Position numbers and translations under genes: made by a program. From IMG/VR virus record IMGVR_UViG_2698536573_000006: a stretch of DNA of 34,476 nt. One strand, 5' to 3'. Shown here piece after piece: positions 1,102 through 9,239 of this stretch. Below the pieces are notes generated by a model, which was not told the DNA's origin, ran no database searches, and saw only the letters and a list, made by a program, of their open reading frames with translations. The stretch comes from a virus. Lineage: Duplodnaviria; Heunggongvirae; Uroviricota; Caudoviricetes. Every line of letters begins with the position of its first letter. Position 1 is the first letter of the stretch.

Positions 1102-1422
1102 TCAGCGGGATAATTTTTGGATTGTTTCGGTTGAAACGCGATCTCCCTCCGAATTGCAGGAACCATCAAGAGAGAGAGCCGGAGAAATTTGCCCGACCTC
1201 CGGCATCGTTTCATCTGTTGATAACCAATAAGCATACTTCTTAAATTTAGGGTGTTTCGTAACCTTAAGTAAGGCACCCTCTGTTACTTGCTTCCCCCTC
1301 ACCTCATAGTTAGTTACCGTCCCATAAGGCAGCCCAACACAATCCGCAAACTCCTGGCGGGTCATACCTTCTGCTTCACGAATCAGGCGAAATTTTTCAC
1401 CCATGCTTGACAAAGATGCCAT
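1102..1422 (-). CDS. immunity repressor, P2 C-like HTH protein
   Basis: About 106 aa with an HTH segment MTRQEFADCVGLPYGTVTNYE and a C-terminal GQISPAL motif resembling P2 C. Divergent from cox. Start at ATG 1422 chosen for the GGAGGA upstream; alternative starts up to 1476 exist. Confidence 0.75.
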   Translation of the reverse strand: MASLSSMGEKFRLIREAEGMTRQEFADCVGLPYGTVTNYEVRGKQVTEGALLKVTKHPKFKKYAYWLSTDETMPEVGQISPALSLDGSCNSEGDRVSTETIQKLSR

Positions 1423-1535
1423 ATCGGGCATATCCTCCATCGCAACATGCCACATCGGGCACAAACATAAAAACACTCAAATAAGCCGATATAAGCCATT
1501 TTGAGCCATTCGAACGAATTAGGGAGATTACCACA
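1423..1535. promoter_or_regulatory. putative divergent early/repressor promoter-operator region (Pe/Pc analogue)
   Basis: Intergenic region between divergent C-like and cox-like genes. Contains direct repeats agccatt...agccatt about one helical turn apart (taagccattttgagccattcg). Promoter elements not mapped. Confidence 0.4.
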
Positions 1536-4418: not shown

Positions 4419-4622
4419 ATGAACAAAAAGACCTGGTTTCGCGCATACATGTGGGCGCTGGTATGCGTCCTCGTCTCTCTCATTCTGTATGCAGGACTAC
4501 TCCCCCGAATGATTTCATCAGACAGCTCCTTCCTGGTATTGCTGGGAATTTTCATTGCCATGCTGTACCCGGCAGGCGTTGTTCGCCTTTTCAGTAAGTA
4601 CATCAAGGAAATCAAACAATGA
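4419..4622 (+). CDS. small two-helix membrane protein, possible SPFH partner
   Basis: 67 aa with two hydrophobic helices; AAAGGA Shine-Dalgarno; its stop overlaps the start of the SPFH gene. Confidence 0.55.
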   Translation: MNKKTWFRAYMWALVCVLVSLILYAGLLPRMISSDSSFLVLLGIFIAMLYPAGVVRLFSKYIKEIKQ

Positions 4623-5449
4623 AGAAATTCAAACTTTTTCAGATTCTCCCGCTTTTTGCCGCCATCCTGCTGGTTGGTTGCGATCGCGTTGAGCCAGGTA
4701 ATGTGGGCATCAAAGTCAACAAACTGGGCGACGACAAAGGCGTCGGTGAAGTGGTTGGCGTTGGCCGCTACTGGACAGGCTGGAATACAGAGGTTTACAT
4801 CTTCCCGACCTTCAAACAAATGAAGACCTACGATGAGCCGTTCAGCTTCCAGATGAGCGACGGCACAAGCATCGGCTATCACATCGGTGTGGCCTACAAA
4901 GTTGATCCATCCAAAGTTACCACAGTGTTTCAGACCTACCGCAAAGGCGTGGATGACATTACCGACACTGACCTGCGCCAGAAGATCGCCGATGCACTCA
5001 ACCGACTGGCCAGCAAAATGACCACCGATAAGTTTATCGACGGTGGTAAGTCTGAACTGCTGGATTCAGCACTTAAAGATATTCAGGAAGAGATGACCCC
5101 CATCGGCATTCAGGTCATGAGCCTCTCTTATGTCGGTAAACCGGAATATCCGCCAACCGTTATCGACAGCATTAACACCAAAGTCACGGCAAACCAGAAA
5201 ACCCTGCAACGTGAACAGGAAGTCAAGCAACGCGAAGCTGAAGCCAACATGCTGCGCGCAGAAGCTGCCGGACAGGCCGATGCCATTCGCACAAAAGCCC
5301 AGGCTGAAGCCGACGCCATTCGTTTACGCGGCGAAGCTCTGCGCCAGAATCCCGGCGTTATGGAGCTGGAAGCGATCAACAAATGGAACGGCACGCTGCC
5401 GCAATACATGACCAGTAACACCGCTGTTCCGTTCGTTCCCGTGAAGTAA
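4619..5449 (+). CDS. SPFH/band-7 (stomatin-prohibitin-HflK/C-like) lipoprotein
   Basis: 276 aa; N-terminal signal with lipobox LLVGC; the central domain and C-terminal Ala/Glu/Gln-rich coiled coil (EAEANMLRAEAAGQADAIRTKAQAEADAIRLRGEA) are typical of SPFH proteins. Confidence 0.8.
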   Translation: MKKFKLFQILPLFAAILLVGCDRVEPGNVGIKVNKLGDDKGVGEVVGVGRYWTGWNTEVYIFPTFKQMKTYDEPFSFQMSDGTSIGYHIGVAYKVDPSKVTTVFQTYRKGVDDITDTDLRQKIADALNRLASKMTTDKFIDGGKSELLDSALKDIQEEMTPIGIQVMSLSYVGKPEYPPTVIDSINTKVTANQKTLQREQEVKQREAEANMLRAEAAGQADAIRTKAQAEADAIRLRGEALRQNPGVMELEAINKWNGTLPQYMTSNTAVPFVPVK

Positions 5450-5512
5450 TTAAATCCGGCCAGTGAAAACCGCTGGCCGGAGCAGTATCAGGATTTTTTA
5501 GTATGCCGTTCT

Positions 5513-5640
5513 CACAAAAAAACCGCTTGCCATGCCGCAATCAGTCAGGTTACATTTCCGCTGCACCTCACAAAACGGGTGCCGGGTTTCGCAGCCTGCT
5601 GACTACACAAGCGCACAACCGCGCCAGCGGTTTTTTTGTG
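5513..5640. repeat. perfect 14-bp inverted repeat flanking a roughly 100-nt structured spacer
   Basis: cacaaaaaaaccgc at 5513-5526 and its exact reverse complement gcggtttttttgtg at 5627-5640; the intergenic region also holds a GC hairpin with a ttcg loop at about 5690-5712 and reiterated ctacacaag/cttgtgtag motifs. Confidence 0.6.
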
Positions 5641-5816
5641 CGTACTGTATTGCCACGTTTTTTTCGCGTCAGAATTATGGCGGGGCGTACGGGGCCGACT
5701 TCGGTCGGGCCGGGTTCTTGTGTAGCCGGTACTGCGAACCTCGTACGTCTCGCCACCCACAGTTTCGCAGCTCTGGATGGTGAGTTTTCACAACTTACTA
5801 CACAAGGGGCCACACC

Positions 5817-6047
5817 ATGGCAAACCGCAAACCACACCGCGCTATCGCGGAGCGTCGTCACATCCAGACTGAAATCAACCGCAGGCTTTCCCGCGCATCA
5901 CGCGTCGCGCAAATCATGCACATCAATATGTTGCATGAGCGCAGCCACGCACTATCAAACATTTATTCCGCCTCTGTTTTCAGCTATCTGGCGGATGATC
6001 TGCACGAGCTTCAACAGCTCATCCAGCAGCAAAACAAACTCCATTAA
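5817..6047 (+). CDS. hypothetical small protein
   Basis: 76-aa ORF with an AAGGGG Shine-Dalgarno 8 nt upstream of the ATG. Confidence 0.5.
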   Translation: MANRKPHRAIAERRHIQTEINRRLSRASRVAQIMHINMLHERSHALSNIYSASVFSYLADDLHELQQLIQQQNKLH

Positions 6048-6119
6048 TTCCTGTTCCGGGCCTTTCCTGCACCTTGCGGCGGGAGGCCTTCGCACATCTG
6101 TAACAAGAGGATTGCCGCA

Positions 6120-6485
6120 ATGATTCTCGCCAACGACTTTCTTGAATACCTGCTCAACACAGAGCGTGATCTTGCCGCTCGCGTGCGTGATCGTTATGAC
6201 ATGTACCTGAAATCCCTGCCTGTACCGCAGCTCGCTGACGGAAAGATTGTTATTGATGGTCGCTACATGATTGACAGCCACGAGGGAAATTACAGGCTTT
6301 ACCGCATTGAAGGTGGCACCCCGTCCGTTATTGGCATTTACCAGCGCCCATCCTCTGCAATCGTCGATGTGATTGCCGACAGCATCCGCATCACACATCG
6401 CCATGCCGACACAGAAGACACCGTGCTGGAAATTCAGCGGCTGGCTACAGTCTGCCGCGACACCCTGAATGGCATGACGAAGTAA
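6120..6485 (+). CDS. hypothetical protein upstream of A
   Basis: 121-aa ORF with an AAGAGGA Shine-Dalgarno, immediately preceding the replication gene. Confidence 0.6.
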   Translation: MILANDFLEYLLNTERDLAARVRDRYDMYLKSLPVPQLADGKIVIDGRYMIDSHEGNYRLYRIEGGTPSVIGIYQRPSSAIVDVIADSIRITHRHADTEDTVLEIQRLATVCRDTLNGMTK

Positions 6486-6491
6486 ATCACT

Positions 6492-9239
6492 ATGACGGCA
6501 GAGTACATCAGGGACTGGCAACAACCGCGCCACGCAGTGGGGCGTGAAGGAACGGGGATCCCCGCTCCTGAATCCGCGCTTTCCTCCTGGCTGGATGCCT
6601 ACCGGGCAGAGAACGAGCGCCGCCAGGAAATGGCTGATGCGGCGTTCTCCGCCACGCCGCTGGGCAACCTGATTAATAAAAGCCTGGACGCACAGGAAAA
6701 ACAGGACAAAACCATCACACTGGCAGGAGACGCCAGAAAGCAGGCACGCGGCGCGGTGGATGAAGCCATGGCCTCGCTGCGCCTGCTGCCGTCCTATCTG
6801 CGCGATCCGCTTATTCGCCACCTCTCCTTCCTGCGCAAAAAACAGGAATCTGACCGCCAGAAAGGTAAAAAGAACCAGCAGGCTGAACGCTACGCGCGCG
6901 GGACCCTGCGCAAAATATTCGAACGTCTGGACCGCACCGACCACCGCTGGCTGACACCGGGTTATCGCGCCCTTGCCGGACGCGAACGCCTGGATGATTT
7001 GCTTTACCTCCCGCAGCTCAACAAGCACCAGATACAGACGCTGGCCACCATGACGGCGGCGATGTTCAGCAGCACCTTCGAAAAACTCTGCGATGGCTTT
7101 GGCGCAACCGATGGCGAGCTGACCATGGATGTAACCCTGAAGGCGTATCAGATGCTGGCCCGCATGGCGTTACACCTGCACGCCATGCCTCCACATTATG
7201 ACGCACTGACAACAGACAAAGACCGGAGGAACGAACCGGACACGGAGCTGCTGCCGGGCGCAATCCTTCGCCTGACCTGTGCGGAATGGTGGAAACGCAA
7301 ACTGTGGCTGTTACGTTGCGAGTGGAGAGAAGAACAACTCCGCGCCGCCTGTCTGGTTTCCAGAAAAACATCGCCCTATCTGAGCCAGGACGCGTTAAGC
7401 GAGTTTCGCGCACAGCGCGAGAAGACACGCGATTTCCTGAAAAGTTTCATGCTGGAAAACGAAGACGGGTTCACGATTGATCTCGAGACAGTGTATTACG
7501 CGGGAGTAAGTAACCCGGTTCACCGTAAGGCAGAAATGATGGCCACCATGAAGGGACTGGAACTTCTGGCCGAAGCCCGTGGCGACAGAGCGGTGTTTCT
7601 GACTGTCACCTGCCCGTCAAAATACCACGCCACAACAGAGAACGGTCATCCGAATCCCAAATGGAACGGGGCCACCATGCGCGACTCCAGCGATTACCTG
7701 GTTAACACGTTTTTTGCGGCTGTCCGCAAAAAACTGAACCGCGACGGTCTGCGCTGGTATGGCATCCGCACGGTGGAGCCTCACCATGACGGCACCGTGC
7801 ACTGGCATATGATGGTCTTTGCTCATCCGGAAGAAATCGACACCATTGTGTCCCACACCCGCGATATTGCCATTCAGGAAGACCGCCACGAGCTGGGCGA
7901 TGACATAACTCCGCGCTTTAAGGCGGAGTACGTCGACGGCTCAAAAGGCACACCAACCAGCTACATCGCCACCTACATCGGAAAGAACCTGGACAGCCAC
8001 GCCGTGGATGGCATCGACCCGAAAACGGGCAAGCCACGCGTTGACCACGAAACCGGAAAATCAATGGCCGAGAGCGTGGAGCGCGCCATCGGCTGGGCGC
8101 GCCTTCACCGGGTCCGCCAGTTCCAGTTCTTTGGCATCCCCTCCCGTCAGGTGTGGCGTGAACTGCGCCGCCTTGCCAGCCAGATGGCACGCAACCCGGA
8201 AGGCCCGCAACGACTGAAGGACGACGCAATGGATGCGGTACTCGCTGCCGCTGATGCCGGGTGTTTTGCCTCCTACATTGAAAAACAGGGTGGCGTACTT
8301 GTTCCACGCAAAGACTACCTGATTCGCACCGCCTACGACCTCGCCGATGAGCTGAACGATTACGGCGAACAGAGCGTACAGATTTACGGGATCTGGTCAC
8401 CACTCATCGGGGAATCCTCCCGTGTGTGCACGCATCCGGATAACTGGAAGCTGGTAAGACGTAAACCGGAAGCGGAAGACAGCGCCCGCGAAAATGGTTT
8501 TGACCTTCAGGGCGGCTCTGCCGCCCCTTGGACTCGTGGCAATAACTGTCCCCGTGTACAGGAAACGGACAACAACGGGACAGAACAGCCGGAGGAACGG
8601 CCAGCACCGTGGCCGCAGCTTCCTGAAGGCGTTGACGTGAATGAATGGATGCGCTCACTGAAACGGCACGAACGCCGGGCACTGATGCGTTCGCTGCGTG
8701 ACAAACAGGCAAAAAACAGCAGTGATGAAATGCAGAACTGGACACAGAGCCGCAAACAGCCACAGCCTTTGCCTGATAACCACGAGTTACTCGCTAAAGA
8801 ATGGCGGGAGTCTGCTGAATCTCTCGGCCTGCATATCGGTGAACAGCAGATGCAGCACCTGTTACGGGGCGGCAGTCTGTACGTTGGCGGCAGCATCATT
8901 ACACCGCAGGGATTTGAAATTGTACGCAAACCGGATACCCGCCCGGACAGCCGAATCACGCAGCTCTGGCAACGCCTGAGTCGTAATCACGGCGTAAGCA
9001 GCACGGAGATCCGCCATAACCCGGTCGCCAGCTATCTGGAACAACTAGAGGCATCAGACCCTGAAGCCGCCGCACGCCTGGCATCCACACTTCAGCAAGA
9101 CCAGAACACCATGAAAACACCAGTTACCGTACTTTCTGACATGCTGCGCGCCATCCGCGACGCAGAGCACGCACAGAGAATCAATGAAACCACTAAACAT
9201 GCTCGCAAAAAAATCAGTTTATTGCATCGAACACGATAG
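6492..9239 (+). CDS. A: replication initiation endonuclease, P2 gpA family (rolling circle)
   Basis: 915 aa; the central region (HHDGTVHWHMMVFAH ... TSYIATYIGKNLD ... WARLHRVRQFQFFGIP) matches the conserved P2 A nickase core as I recall it. Confidence 0.9.
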   Translation: MTAEYIRDWQQPRHAVGREGTGIPAPESALSSWLDAYRAENERRQEMADAAFSATPLGNLINKSLDAQEKQDKTITLAGDARKQARGAVDEAMASLRLLPSYLRDPLIRHLSFLRKKQESDRQKGKKNQQAERYARGTLRKIFERLDRTDHRWLTPGYRALAGRERLDDLLYLPQLNKHQIQTLATMTAAMFSSTFEKLCDGFGATDGELTMDVTLKAYQMLARMALHLHAMPPHYDALTTDKDRRNEPDTELLPGAILRLTCAEWWKRKLWLLRCEWREEQLRAACLVSRKTSPYLSQDALSEFRAQREKTRDFLKSFMLENEDGFTIDLETVYYAGVSNPVHRKAEMMATMKGLELLAEARGDRAVFLTVTCPSKYHATTENGHPNPKWNGATMRDSSDYLVNTFFAAVRKKLNRDGLRWYGIRTVEPHHDGTVHWHMMVFAHPEEIDTIVSHTRDIAIQEDRHELGDDITPRFKAEYVDGSKGTPTSYIATYIGKNLDSHAVDGIDPKTGKPRVDHETGKSMAESVERAIGWARLHRVRQFQFFGIPSRQVWRELRRLASQMARNPEGPQRLKDDAMDAVLAAADAGCFASYIEKQGGVLVPRKDYLIRTAYDLADELNDYGEQSVQIYGIWSPLIGESSRVCTHPDNWKLVRRKPEAEDSARENGFDLQGGSAAPWTRGNNCPRVQETDNNGTEQPEERPAPWPQLPEGVDVNEWMRSLKRHERRALMRSLRDKQAKNSSDEMQNWTQSRKQPQPLPDNHELLAKEWRESAESLGLHIGEQQMQHLLRGGSLYVGGSIITPQGFEIVRKPDTRPDSRITQLWQRLSRNHGVSSTEIRHNPVASYLEQLEASDPEAAARLASTLQQDQNTMKTPVTVLSDMLRAIRDAEHAQRINETTKHARKKISLLHRTR

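Follow-up and report, generated by a model that had tools for sequence, protein, structure and literature searches.

RNAs of the C4 type are stable molecules of ~77 nt that are processed from a precursor, with RNase P acting at the 5' end, and that repress expression downstream; for the CI RNA of the satellite P4, processing and Rho-dependent termination are established. Here we describe what is very probably a P4/P1-type IsrK-C4 RNA immunity module, at positions 5513-5816 of a 34,476-nt stretch of viral DNA (IMG/VR record IMGVR_UViG_2698536573_000006, called the window throughout, at its full length), within the early operon of an E. coli prophage that is P2-type and P88-like (Xuanwuvirus). 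The name 'IsrK-C4 immunity system' is that of Barquist et al. (PMC3632133), and the pair of RNAs has been noted in APSE phages (PMC7313666); we found no description of the module in P88-like phages in the published literature. In P1 and P7, specificity differences in two short C4 segments, a' and b', underlie heteroimmunity (PMC12197685, citing Citron and Schuster 1990). IsrK of the prophage Gifsy-1 forms pairs, in cis as well as in trans, with the region that follows it and turns on the anti-repressor AnrP, and STnc1160, a processed RNA of ~80 nt, has been observed there too (PMC4825925); Hfq binding by IsrK and its action in trans on the read-through transcript have been shown for Gifsy-1 only (PMC4825925), in lysogens of which both IsrK and STnc1160 are highly transcribed (PMC7067206).

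The gap that contains the locus lies between an SPFH gene and the ATG at 5817, and the initial annotation of this DNA, made from its letters alone, was right to single it out as long (about 370 bp): there are 367 bp without a credible open reading frame (ORF) before the next real one. When the whole window was searched with all Rfam families at their gathering thresholds, exactly two matches were returned, isrK and C4, both of them inside the gap (5450-5816; Table 1), while a tRNA/tmRNA scan of the window found neither. The small RNA that had been one of the options raised for the region is thus present as two Rfam-recognised RNAs, both of known phage regulatory families, and the locus adds a further case to an RNA immunity switch already known, without being a new kind of element. 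Another option, that of an attenuator between gene blocks, stands in so far as an intrinsic terminator follows the IsrK-like RNA, whereas polarity exerted by C4 on the downstream genes is only probable, by analogy with P1 and P4.

The predicted fold of the IsrK-like RNA consists of a 5' hairpin, a hairpin that displays a segment called a1, a linker that carries a segment called b1, and the terminator, and its stems are preserved in 37 aligned sequences, the set of distinct sequences from which all formal covariation counts given here were made. Upstream of it a consensus scan places a sigma-70 promoter; 56 of 58 relatives keep its two hexamers, the spacer between them being variable, and the predicted transcript start near 5563 would be the first base of the Rfam isrK match; this TTGCCA-18-TACATT site had not been among the features listed initially. 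The terminator-like stem and T7 run that had been listed, near 5616-5637, were recovered by our scan (hairpin 5617-5632, T7 at 5631-5637) as the terminator of the IsrK-like RNA, which is invariant in 58 of 58 relatives. The hallmark of IsrK, promoter-like and terminator-like sites directly upstream of a C4-type RNA, is therefore found here on sequence evidence. A second candidate promoter at 5650-5678 (TTGCCA at 5650, AATTAT at 5673) was rejected, as its -35 is unconserved (TTGCCA in 30 and TCGCCA in 21 of 58 relatives) and its -10 belongs to the 5' flank of C4.

The C4-type RNA has a folded core at ~5678-5758 with a 17-bp closing stem, a UUCG hairpin (5695-5708) and a further hairpin (5709-5730) with a 12-nt loop, and a minimum free energy (MFE) of -47.6 kcal/mol (z -3.95). 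Its first internal hairpin, CCGAC-UUCG-GUCGG, is the ttcg-loop hairpin that had been noticed at about 5690-5712. Taken together, the internal stems of both RNAs are paired in 99.9% of alignment cells, with three compensatory pairs.

Two trios of short complementary segments connect the two RNAs with each other and with the leader of the next gene. The reiterated ctacacaag motifs seen initially in both orientations are one of them: CTACACAAG occurs at 5603 and 5798 on the + strand and at 5717 on the - strand, three matches where 0.2 are expected, a count reached by none of 100 shuffles. The other trio, absent from the initial annotation, is made up of GTTTCGCAGC at 5586 and 5762 and CTGCGAA at 5732. 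The complements are exact over 7 nt (a1, a' and a2) and 9 nt (b1, b' and b2); the end of b2 is 10 nt from the ATG, and b2 matches are usually 1-2 nt longer in the direction of the Shine-Dalgarno sequence.

It is the variation among relatives that identifies these segments as RNA partners. In 10 related prophages nearly all substitutions lie in six short patches, and at every locus a1 and a2 are both the reverse complement of a', and b1 and b2 that of b', with five a types and eight b types that are freely recombined. Within 5563-5816, 79% of the variability falls in the six patches. A protein-based scan of genome contigs yielded at least three close relatives. The invariant C4 core, used as a DNA pattern against viral contigs, broadened the sample by at least 120 loci, and among 131 usable loci we count 32 a'/b' combinations, nearly all with exact 7-11-nt complements both upstream and downstream. 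Formal counts agree: for a1:a' and b1:b', 99.8% of cells are paired and 11 of 16 pairs have changed on both sides, giving 145 two-sided cells as compared with 40 in shuffles (0 of 500 reach 145), and for a':a2 and b':b2, 98.5% of cells are paired, with 10 of 16 pairs two-sided and 142 two-sided cells. When the partners are slid by 1-3 columns, pairing falls to 25-50%. Whole-molecule prediction of duplexes between C4 and its flanks was dropped because it unfolds C4; in loop-only duplexes, cognate C4-target pairs have a mean of -23.8 kcal/mol and non-cognate pairs one of -10.4 kcal/mol, and a type's own target is the best in 17 of 17 types. The comparison across relatives that had been suggested as a check thus finds the stems kept and the a and b patches co-varying three ways.

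These observations also bear on the proposal, made at the outset, that the motifs are protein-binding iterons, that is, DNA iterons or operators for a phage protein such as the repressor, Cox or a replication protein. Short motifs present in three copies and both orientations, over-represented and placed upstream of the replication gene block, are what such a proposal can point to; the central copies, however, read as the reverse complement of those on either side and are located in a loop and a junction of a conserved RNA fold, the operator motif of the C repressor at the early promoter has no copy within three mismatches near 5500-5570, and the equivalent architecture is experimentally RNA-based in P1, P4 and Gifsy-1. 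The variants tolerate G-U-compatible substitutions, and since G-U pairs occur among them the patches are to be read as RNA pairing and not as DNA repeats. We consider the iteron proposal highly improbable: the motifs are complementary RNA partners that co-vary.

In the IsrK-C4 mechanism that we propose for this prophage, the promoter at 5527-5556 would give rise to a short IsrK-like RNA ending at the terminator (5617-5637), and read-through of that terminator would yield the C4-type RNA (~5678-5758), probably cut from a precursor. C4 would expose b' in its 12-nt loop and a' in a single-stranded junction, and these would pair with b2 and a2 in the leader of the next gene; as b2 abuts the ribosome-binding site, such pairing would block translation of the epsilon-like anti-repressor. 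Through polarity C4 would probably also lower expression of replication gene A in the lysogen, which would stay quiet. The same a' and b' can pair with a1 and b1 of IsrK, which would act both as a partner in cis and as a decoy in trans and so relieve the block at high transcription, and the hypervariable a and b sequences would define immunity specificities. The pairing, with its specificity and its position, is what the sequences compared here show; that C4 is processed, that it blocks translation and brings about Rho-dependent polarity, that IsrK serves as a decoy and that the epsilon-like product acts as an anti-repressor is carried over here by analogy with P1, P4 and Gifsy-1. In the MFE structure of the read-through RNA (5563-5830), a1 and b1 are paired in cis with a' and b', and an alternative hairpin is formed between 5749-5758, the 3' strand of the closing stem of C4, and 5775-5784, with a2 in its loop; this last helix is paired in register in 99.7% of cells, with no two-sided changes. 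The sequence around it, CTCTGGATGGTGAG (5771-5784, between a2 and b2), is invariant or nearly so in 58 relatives.

Several points weigh against the IsrK-C4 reading. How the promoter is used, how efficient the terminator is, whether C4 is processed and in which direction the regulation runs are matters that we infer for this prophage, and in Gifsy-1 experiments have shown that IsrK, on balance, activates the anti-repressor downstream. For every C4 a read-through transcript contains two sets of targets, so that repression requires C4 to be much more stable than messenger RNA (mRNA), as the CI RNA of P4 is. No counterpart of the Icd-like ORF of P1 and P4 is found: the NCBIfam model phage_ICD_like matches the P4 ORF and nothing in the gap region, and b2 is followed by the epsilon-like gene as the very next ORF. 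Finally, a long reading frame (that of the Ash protein, below) is open across the region in 83 of 86 unique relatives, which would allow translation through it, and the model leaves unexplained a 14-bp inverted repeat, to which we return below.

The open frame raises the question of whether the region encodes a protein, either the Pfam 'Ash' protein or a translated upstream ORF like orf45 of Gifsy-1, here from the AUG at 5677, so that its conserved features would be due to coding, or to coupling of translation with the gene that follows. A 206-aa ORF (5503-6123) does match PF10554 (Phage_ASH), at 26.6 bits and so marginally above the gathering score of 26, and in one relative RefSeq has an 'ash family protein' pseudogene at the same position (1504-1767 of locus L005). 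Protein homology of an ORF spanning the region, which the initial annotation had named as evidence that would count against a non-coding region, is therefore formally present, but codon statistics speak against coding. The Ash frame has no codon-position signal (entropy 0.29/0.33/0.29 for the three positions, and 0.11/0.11/0.10 outside the six patches), and the variation sits in the patches that co-vary as RNA pairs. The ORF also overlaps the entire epsilon-like gene out of frame and stops at 6123. From the absent codon signal and this overlap of a real gene we read the match as one to translated RNA genes, and the Ash protein was rejected on the codon statistics; PF10554 and the old 'cI' ORF of P4 appear to be translations of the IsrK-C4 region, and Forti et al. 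are said to have found in 1995 that the P4 'cI' ORF is not the immunity factor. As for coupling, the Gifsy-1 ORF that overlaps the C4-like RNA is translated and needed for it (PMC4825925), but that ORF stops before the anti-repressor gene whereas the frame here continues through the next gene, which makes termination-reinitiation of the Gifsy-1 kind inapplicable, and orf45 itself is conserved in nucleotide and not in amino-acid sequence (PMC4825925). A protein-coding explanation is in our view very unlikely. RefSeq annotation of the locus varies among a hypothetical protein, the 'ash family protein' pseudogene and an ORF on the opposite strand, the last in phage P88 (NC_026014), where a hypothetical protein, SF19_gp13, is placed at 5033-5221 (-), opposite the RNA genes.

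The inverted repeat was the headline feature of the initial annotation, and it is real: CACAAAAAAACCGC (5513-5526) and GCGGTTTTTTTGTG (5627-5640) are exact over 14 bp with a 100-nt spacer, none being expected in shuffles, and the match extends to 15 bp exactly and to 28 nt at 82% complementarity. One could suppose that it is the key element, the left arm pairing in transcripts from the early promoter with the IsrK terminator (its 3' half and U-tract), such that termination would be altered or a processing stem made and the fate of the RNA set by its promoter of origin. In the MFE structure of an RNA spanning 5490-5645 the repeat helix does replace the terminator hairpin (-55.3 kcal/mol, z -4.0), and the P88-type family shows essentially no change in either arm, the left one being intact in 55 of 58 relatives. 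Yet the three left-arm variants are uncompensated and there is no covariation, the repeat is missing from P4, P1-type, alpha-type and lambdoid modules, and the left arm and the 5' half of the terminator are of the same sense, which would make kinetic pre-emption of the hairpin impossible. As a conserved RNA helix the repeat was accordingly rejected, and it is not the functional core of the locus. There is a simpler description of its arms: the right one is the 3' half and tail of the IsrK terminator, and the left one is the A-tract upstream of the -35 hexamer, which we take to resemble the proximal subsite of an UP element. That the repeat is the key element we therefore regard as improbable, though less so than the protein or iteron proposals.

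Table 1. Coordinates of the features of the IsrK-C4 module and of its surroundings in the window
Feature	Position	Strand	Details
C-operator-like direct repeats	1416-1430, 1447-1461		ATGCCA(T/C)ATCGGGCA; flank the -10 of the predicted early promoter
Predicted early promoter	1407-1436		TTGACA-18-TATCCT; between the C and cox genes
SPFH gene	4619-5449	+	Pfam Band_7 match
Hairpin 3' of SPFH stop codon	5455-5481	+	Perfect 9-bp stem; end of variable cargo cassette, outside conserved module
Left arm of inverted repeat	5513-5526	+	A7 tract directly upstream of -35 hexamer; left boundary of conserved module
Predicted sigma-70 promoter of IsrK-like RNA	5527-5556	+	-35 TTGCCA, 18-nt spacer, -10 TACATT; consensus scan
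IsrK-like RNA	5563-5637	+	Rfam RF01394, 64.1 bits (gathering score 50); equivalent to P4 seqA and P1 a1b1 leader
a1 (TTCGCAG)	5588-5594	+	Complementary to C4 a'; in IsrK hairpin loop
b1 (CTACACAAG)	5603-5611	+	Complementary to C4 b' loop; in IsrK linker
IsrK intrinsic terminator	5617-5640	+	Stem AACCGC/GCGGTT, loop GCCA, then T7
C4-type antisense RNA gene	5673-5760	+	Rfam RF01695, 83.2 bits (gathering score 45), model positions 1-87 of 87
b' (CUUGUGUAG)	5717-5725	+	In 12-nt loop of C4; specificity determinant
a' (CUGCGAA)	5732-5738	+	Single-stranded junction of C4; specificity determinant
a2 (TTCGCAG)	5764-5770	+	Downstream a' target, just 3' of C4
Invariant block GGATGGTGAG between a2 and b2	5775-5784	+	Can pair with C4 closing-stem 3' strand, 5749-5758
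b2 (CTACACAAG)	5798-5806	+	Downstream b' target; abuts/overlaps Shine-Dalgarno AAGGGG, 5804-5809
P4 epsilon derepression (anti-repressor) protein homologue, 76 aa	5817-6047	+	Pfam PF25738, 32.5 bits (gathering score 27)
121-aa ORF, function unassigned	6120-6485	+	phrog_3237; downstream, predicted co-transcribed
P2-type replication endonuclease gpA	6492-9239	+	Pfam PF05840, E 7e-131; last gene of block

P2 C is the target of P4 epsilon, and the window encodes counterparts of both: its repressor, encoded on the minus strand at 1102-1422, shares 37% identity with P2 C, and the 76-aa protein is 29% identical to P4 epsilon (BLASTP, E 4e-9), with an excess of variation at the third codon position (entropy 0.35/0.34/0.60). 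By analogy, the 76-aa protein would be an anti-repressor against the phage's own P2-type C repressor. The gpA protein is 31% identical to P2 A. Among 132 loci with this C4 core, the epsilon-like gene lies downstream in 99 and gpA in 89, a P4 alpha-type primase is found in six, and most of the others have a Rha-type anti-repressor in a lambdoid context.

The early promoter of the prophage has direct repeats laid out (1413-1461) as would be expected of P2-type C operators, and no copy of this motif within three mismatches was found near 5500-5570, so that repressor control of the IsrK promoter is not suggested. As to LexA, the window has only two CTGT-N8-ACAG sites, one within gpA (8546) and one within an ORF close to the right end (33198), and neither is near the module.

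One of the closest described relatives of the module is the immunity region (seqA, CI RNA, seqC) of the phage-plasmid P4, in which the same two Rfam families occur in the same order and on one strand, isrK at 8615-8692 (60.8 bits, in the seqA region) and C4 at 8420-8507, with epsilon downstream at 7888-8175, and in which, as here, the module precedes the replication gene of the element. The host elements differ, P4 being a satellite with an alpha primase and the one here a complete phage of P2 type that has gpA and a C/Cox switch; the P4 module has an Icd-like ORF where here epsilon directly follows the target sites, its spacing between IsrK and C4 is longer, and it lacks the 14-bp inverted repeat. 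The immI operon of P1 and P7 is another close relative: P1 also belongs to the C4 family (68.8 bits), and its curated record gives the same order of elements, a1, b1, c4, a2, b2, icd and ant1. The geometry is near-identical, with 66 nt from b1 to C4 and 10 nt from b2 to the start codon in both, and in both the controlled product is an anti-repressor. However, the P1 leader matches Rfam c4-a1b1 (RF03163) and not isrK, P1 has icd and the large Ant1/2 proteins, and one of its c4 promoters carries an operator for C1 (Oc4), in contrast to the absence of a C operator near the module here.

With the isrK-orf45(STnc1160)-anrP locus of Gifsy-1 the window shares the isrK family, an IsrK terminator that would be read through here as it is there, and a predicted anti-repressor gene downstream, and the cis pairing between the central part of IsrK and the C4-like region that is known from Gifsy-1 (PMC4825925) recurs in the MFE predicted for the window; Gifsy-1, however, is a lambdoid prophage with an anti-repressor from a different family. 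A parallel in function is offered by sar and ant of P22 immI, a second immunity region in which translation of the anti-repressor is likewise prevented by a small antisense RNA (PMC12197685), although sar is a true cis-antisense RNA from the opposite strand, without C4 or IsrK homology and without the two-site a/b layout. The early region of P2 itself has no Rfam match.

The window is a P2-type prophage that adjoins pdxB and encodes an integrase, the C repressor, Cox and early genes. Its gap region is 89% identical to phage P88, which is inducible by mitomycin-C (PMC5285337), and 87-100% identical, over the conserved part, to other Xuanwuvirus (Peduoviridae) records; it is identical or near-identical in many E. 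coli chromosomes and matches 1153 of 5426 complete E. coli genomes in a search for near matches (about one in five), a number that rises to 1801 in a more sensitive search. A full enterobacterial IsrK-C4 module, with an 88%-identical epsilon-like gene, is also found on a 226-kb contig of a Firmicutes assembly titled Vagococcus sp. WN89Y (NZ_JBQPOM010000071.1), likely through contamination or mislabelling.

Conservation begins exactly at 5513, and the sequence to the left of this point differs among relatives that have other upstream genes: the block of IsrK-C4, the 76-aa ORF, the ~121-aa ORF and gpA is constant, while the left-hand gene varies (SPFH, a DNA-binding protein, ead-like and others). 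The SPFH-domain, lipoprotein-like gene and the small membrane ORF that precedes it (4419-5449) are variable cargo, present only in some P88-type prophages and replaced at this junction in others by different genes. A terminator-like stem had been proposed initially just after this cargo, at 5455-5479; the hairpin is present, but as the T-run is a T6 that begins 12 nt past the stem it is not a canonical + strand terminator. Part of this hairpin, AAAACCGCTGGCC (5466-5478), is 92% identical to AAAACCGCTTGCC (5519-5531) in the region of the left arm, and its first 12 nt are perfectly complementary to GCCAGCGGTTTT (5623-5634) of the IsrK terminator, similarities that may reflect microhomology at the cargo insertion junction, or chance.

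More than one module may be carried together. Five lambdoid loci (L016, L034, L096, L106 and L115) have two or three tandem units of a C4-type RNA and a Rha-type anti-repressor, ~850 bp apart, in which neighbours mostly differ in a'/b', although L106 has two identical units. Modules co-resident in one genome differ in b' and can share a': this is what is seen in four pairs of contigs, each pair from one source genome (L015/L059, L016/L043, L018/L024 and L081/L085), in all of which the b' loops differ, while L081 and L085 have a' in common. The four pairs fit heteroimmune co-residence, a sample far too small for a test of the idea.

What has been an unannotated or misannotated gap becomes a defined regulatory module, and the principle known from P1, P7 and P4 is unchanged by it. 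The prediction that follows is of a second, RNA-based immunity layer in P88-type P2-like phages, which would control both an anti-repressor and the replication initiator and would bear on prophage induction, superinfection immunity and the interplay of helpers and satellites. The three-way covariation provides, in addition, a ready catalogue of orthogonal RNA-target pairs. It is tempting to speculate, although we hold it to be rather doubtful, that P88-group P2-type helpers carry the RNA immunity and epsilon cassette of P4 as a second immunity layer that gates gene A and, as part of the same proposal, that the reassorting a/b 'barcode', with its at least 32 combinations, constitutes a network through which P2-like prophages, P4-like satellites and lambdoid phages that reside together regulate one another in a type-specific way. 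If true, this would mean that the derepression cassette of a satellite has been exchanged with phages of the helper type.

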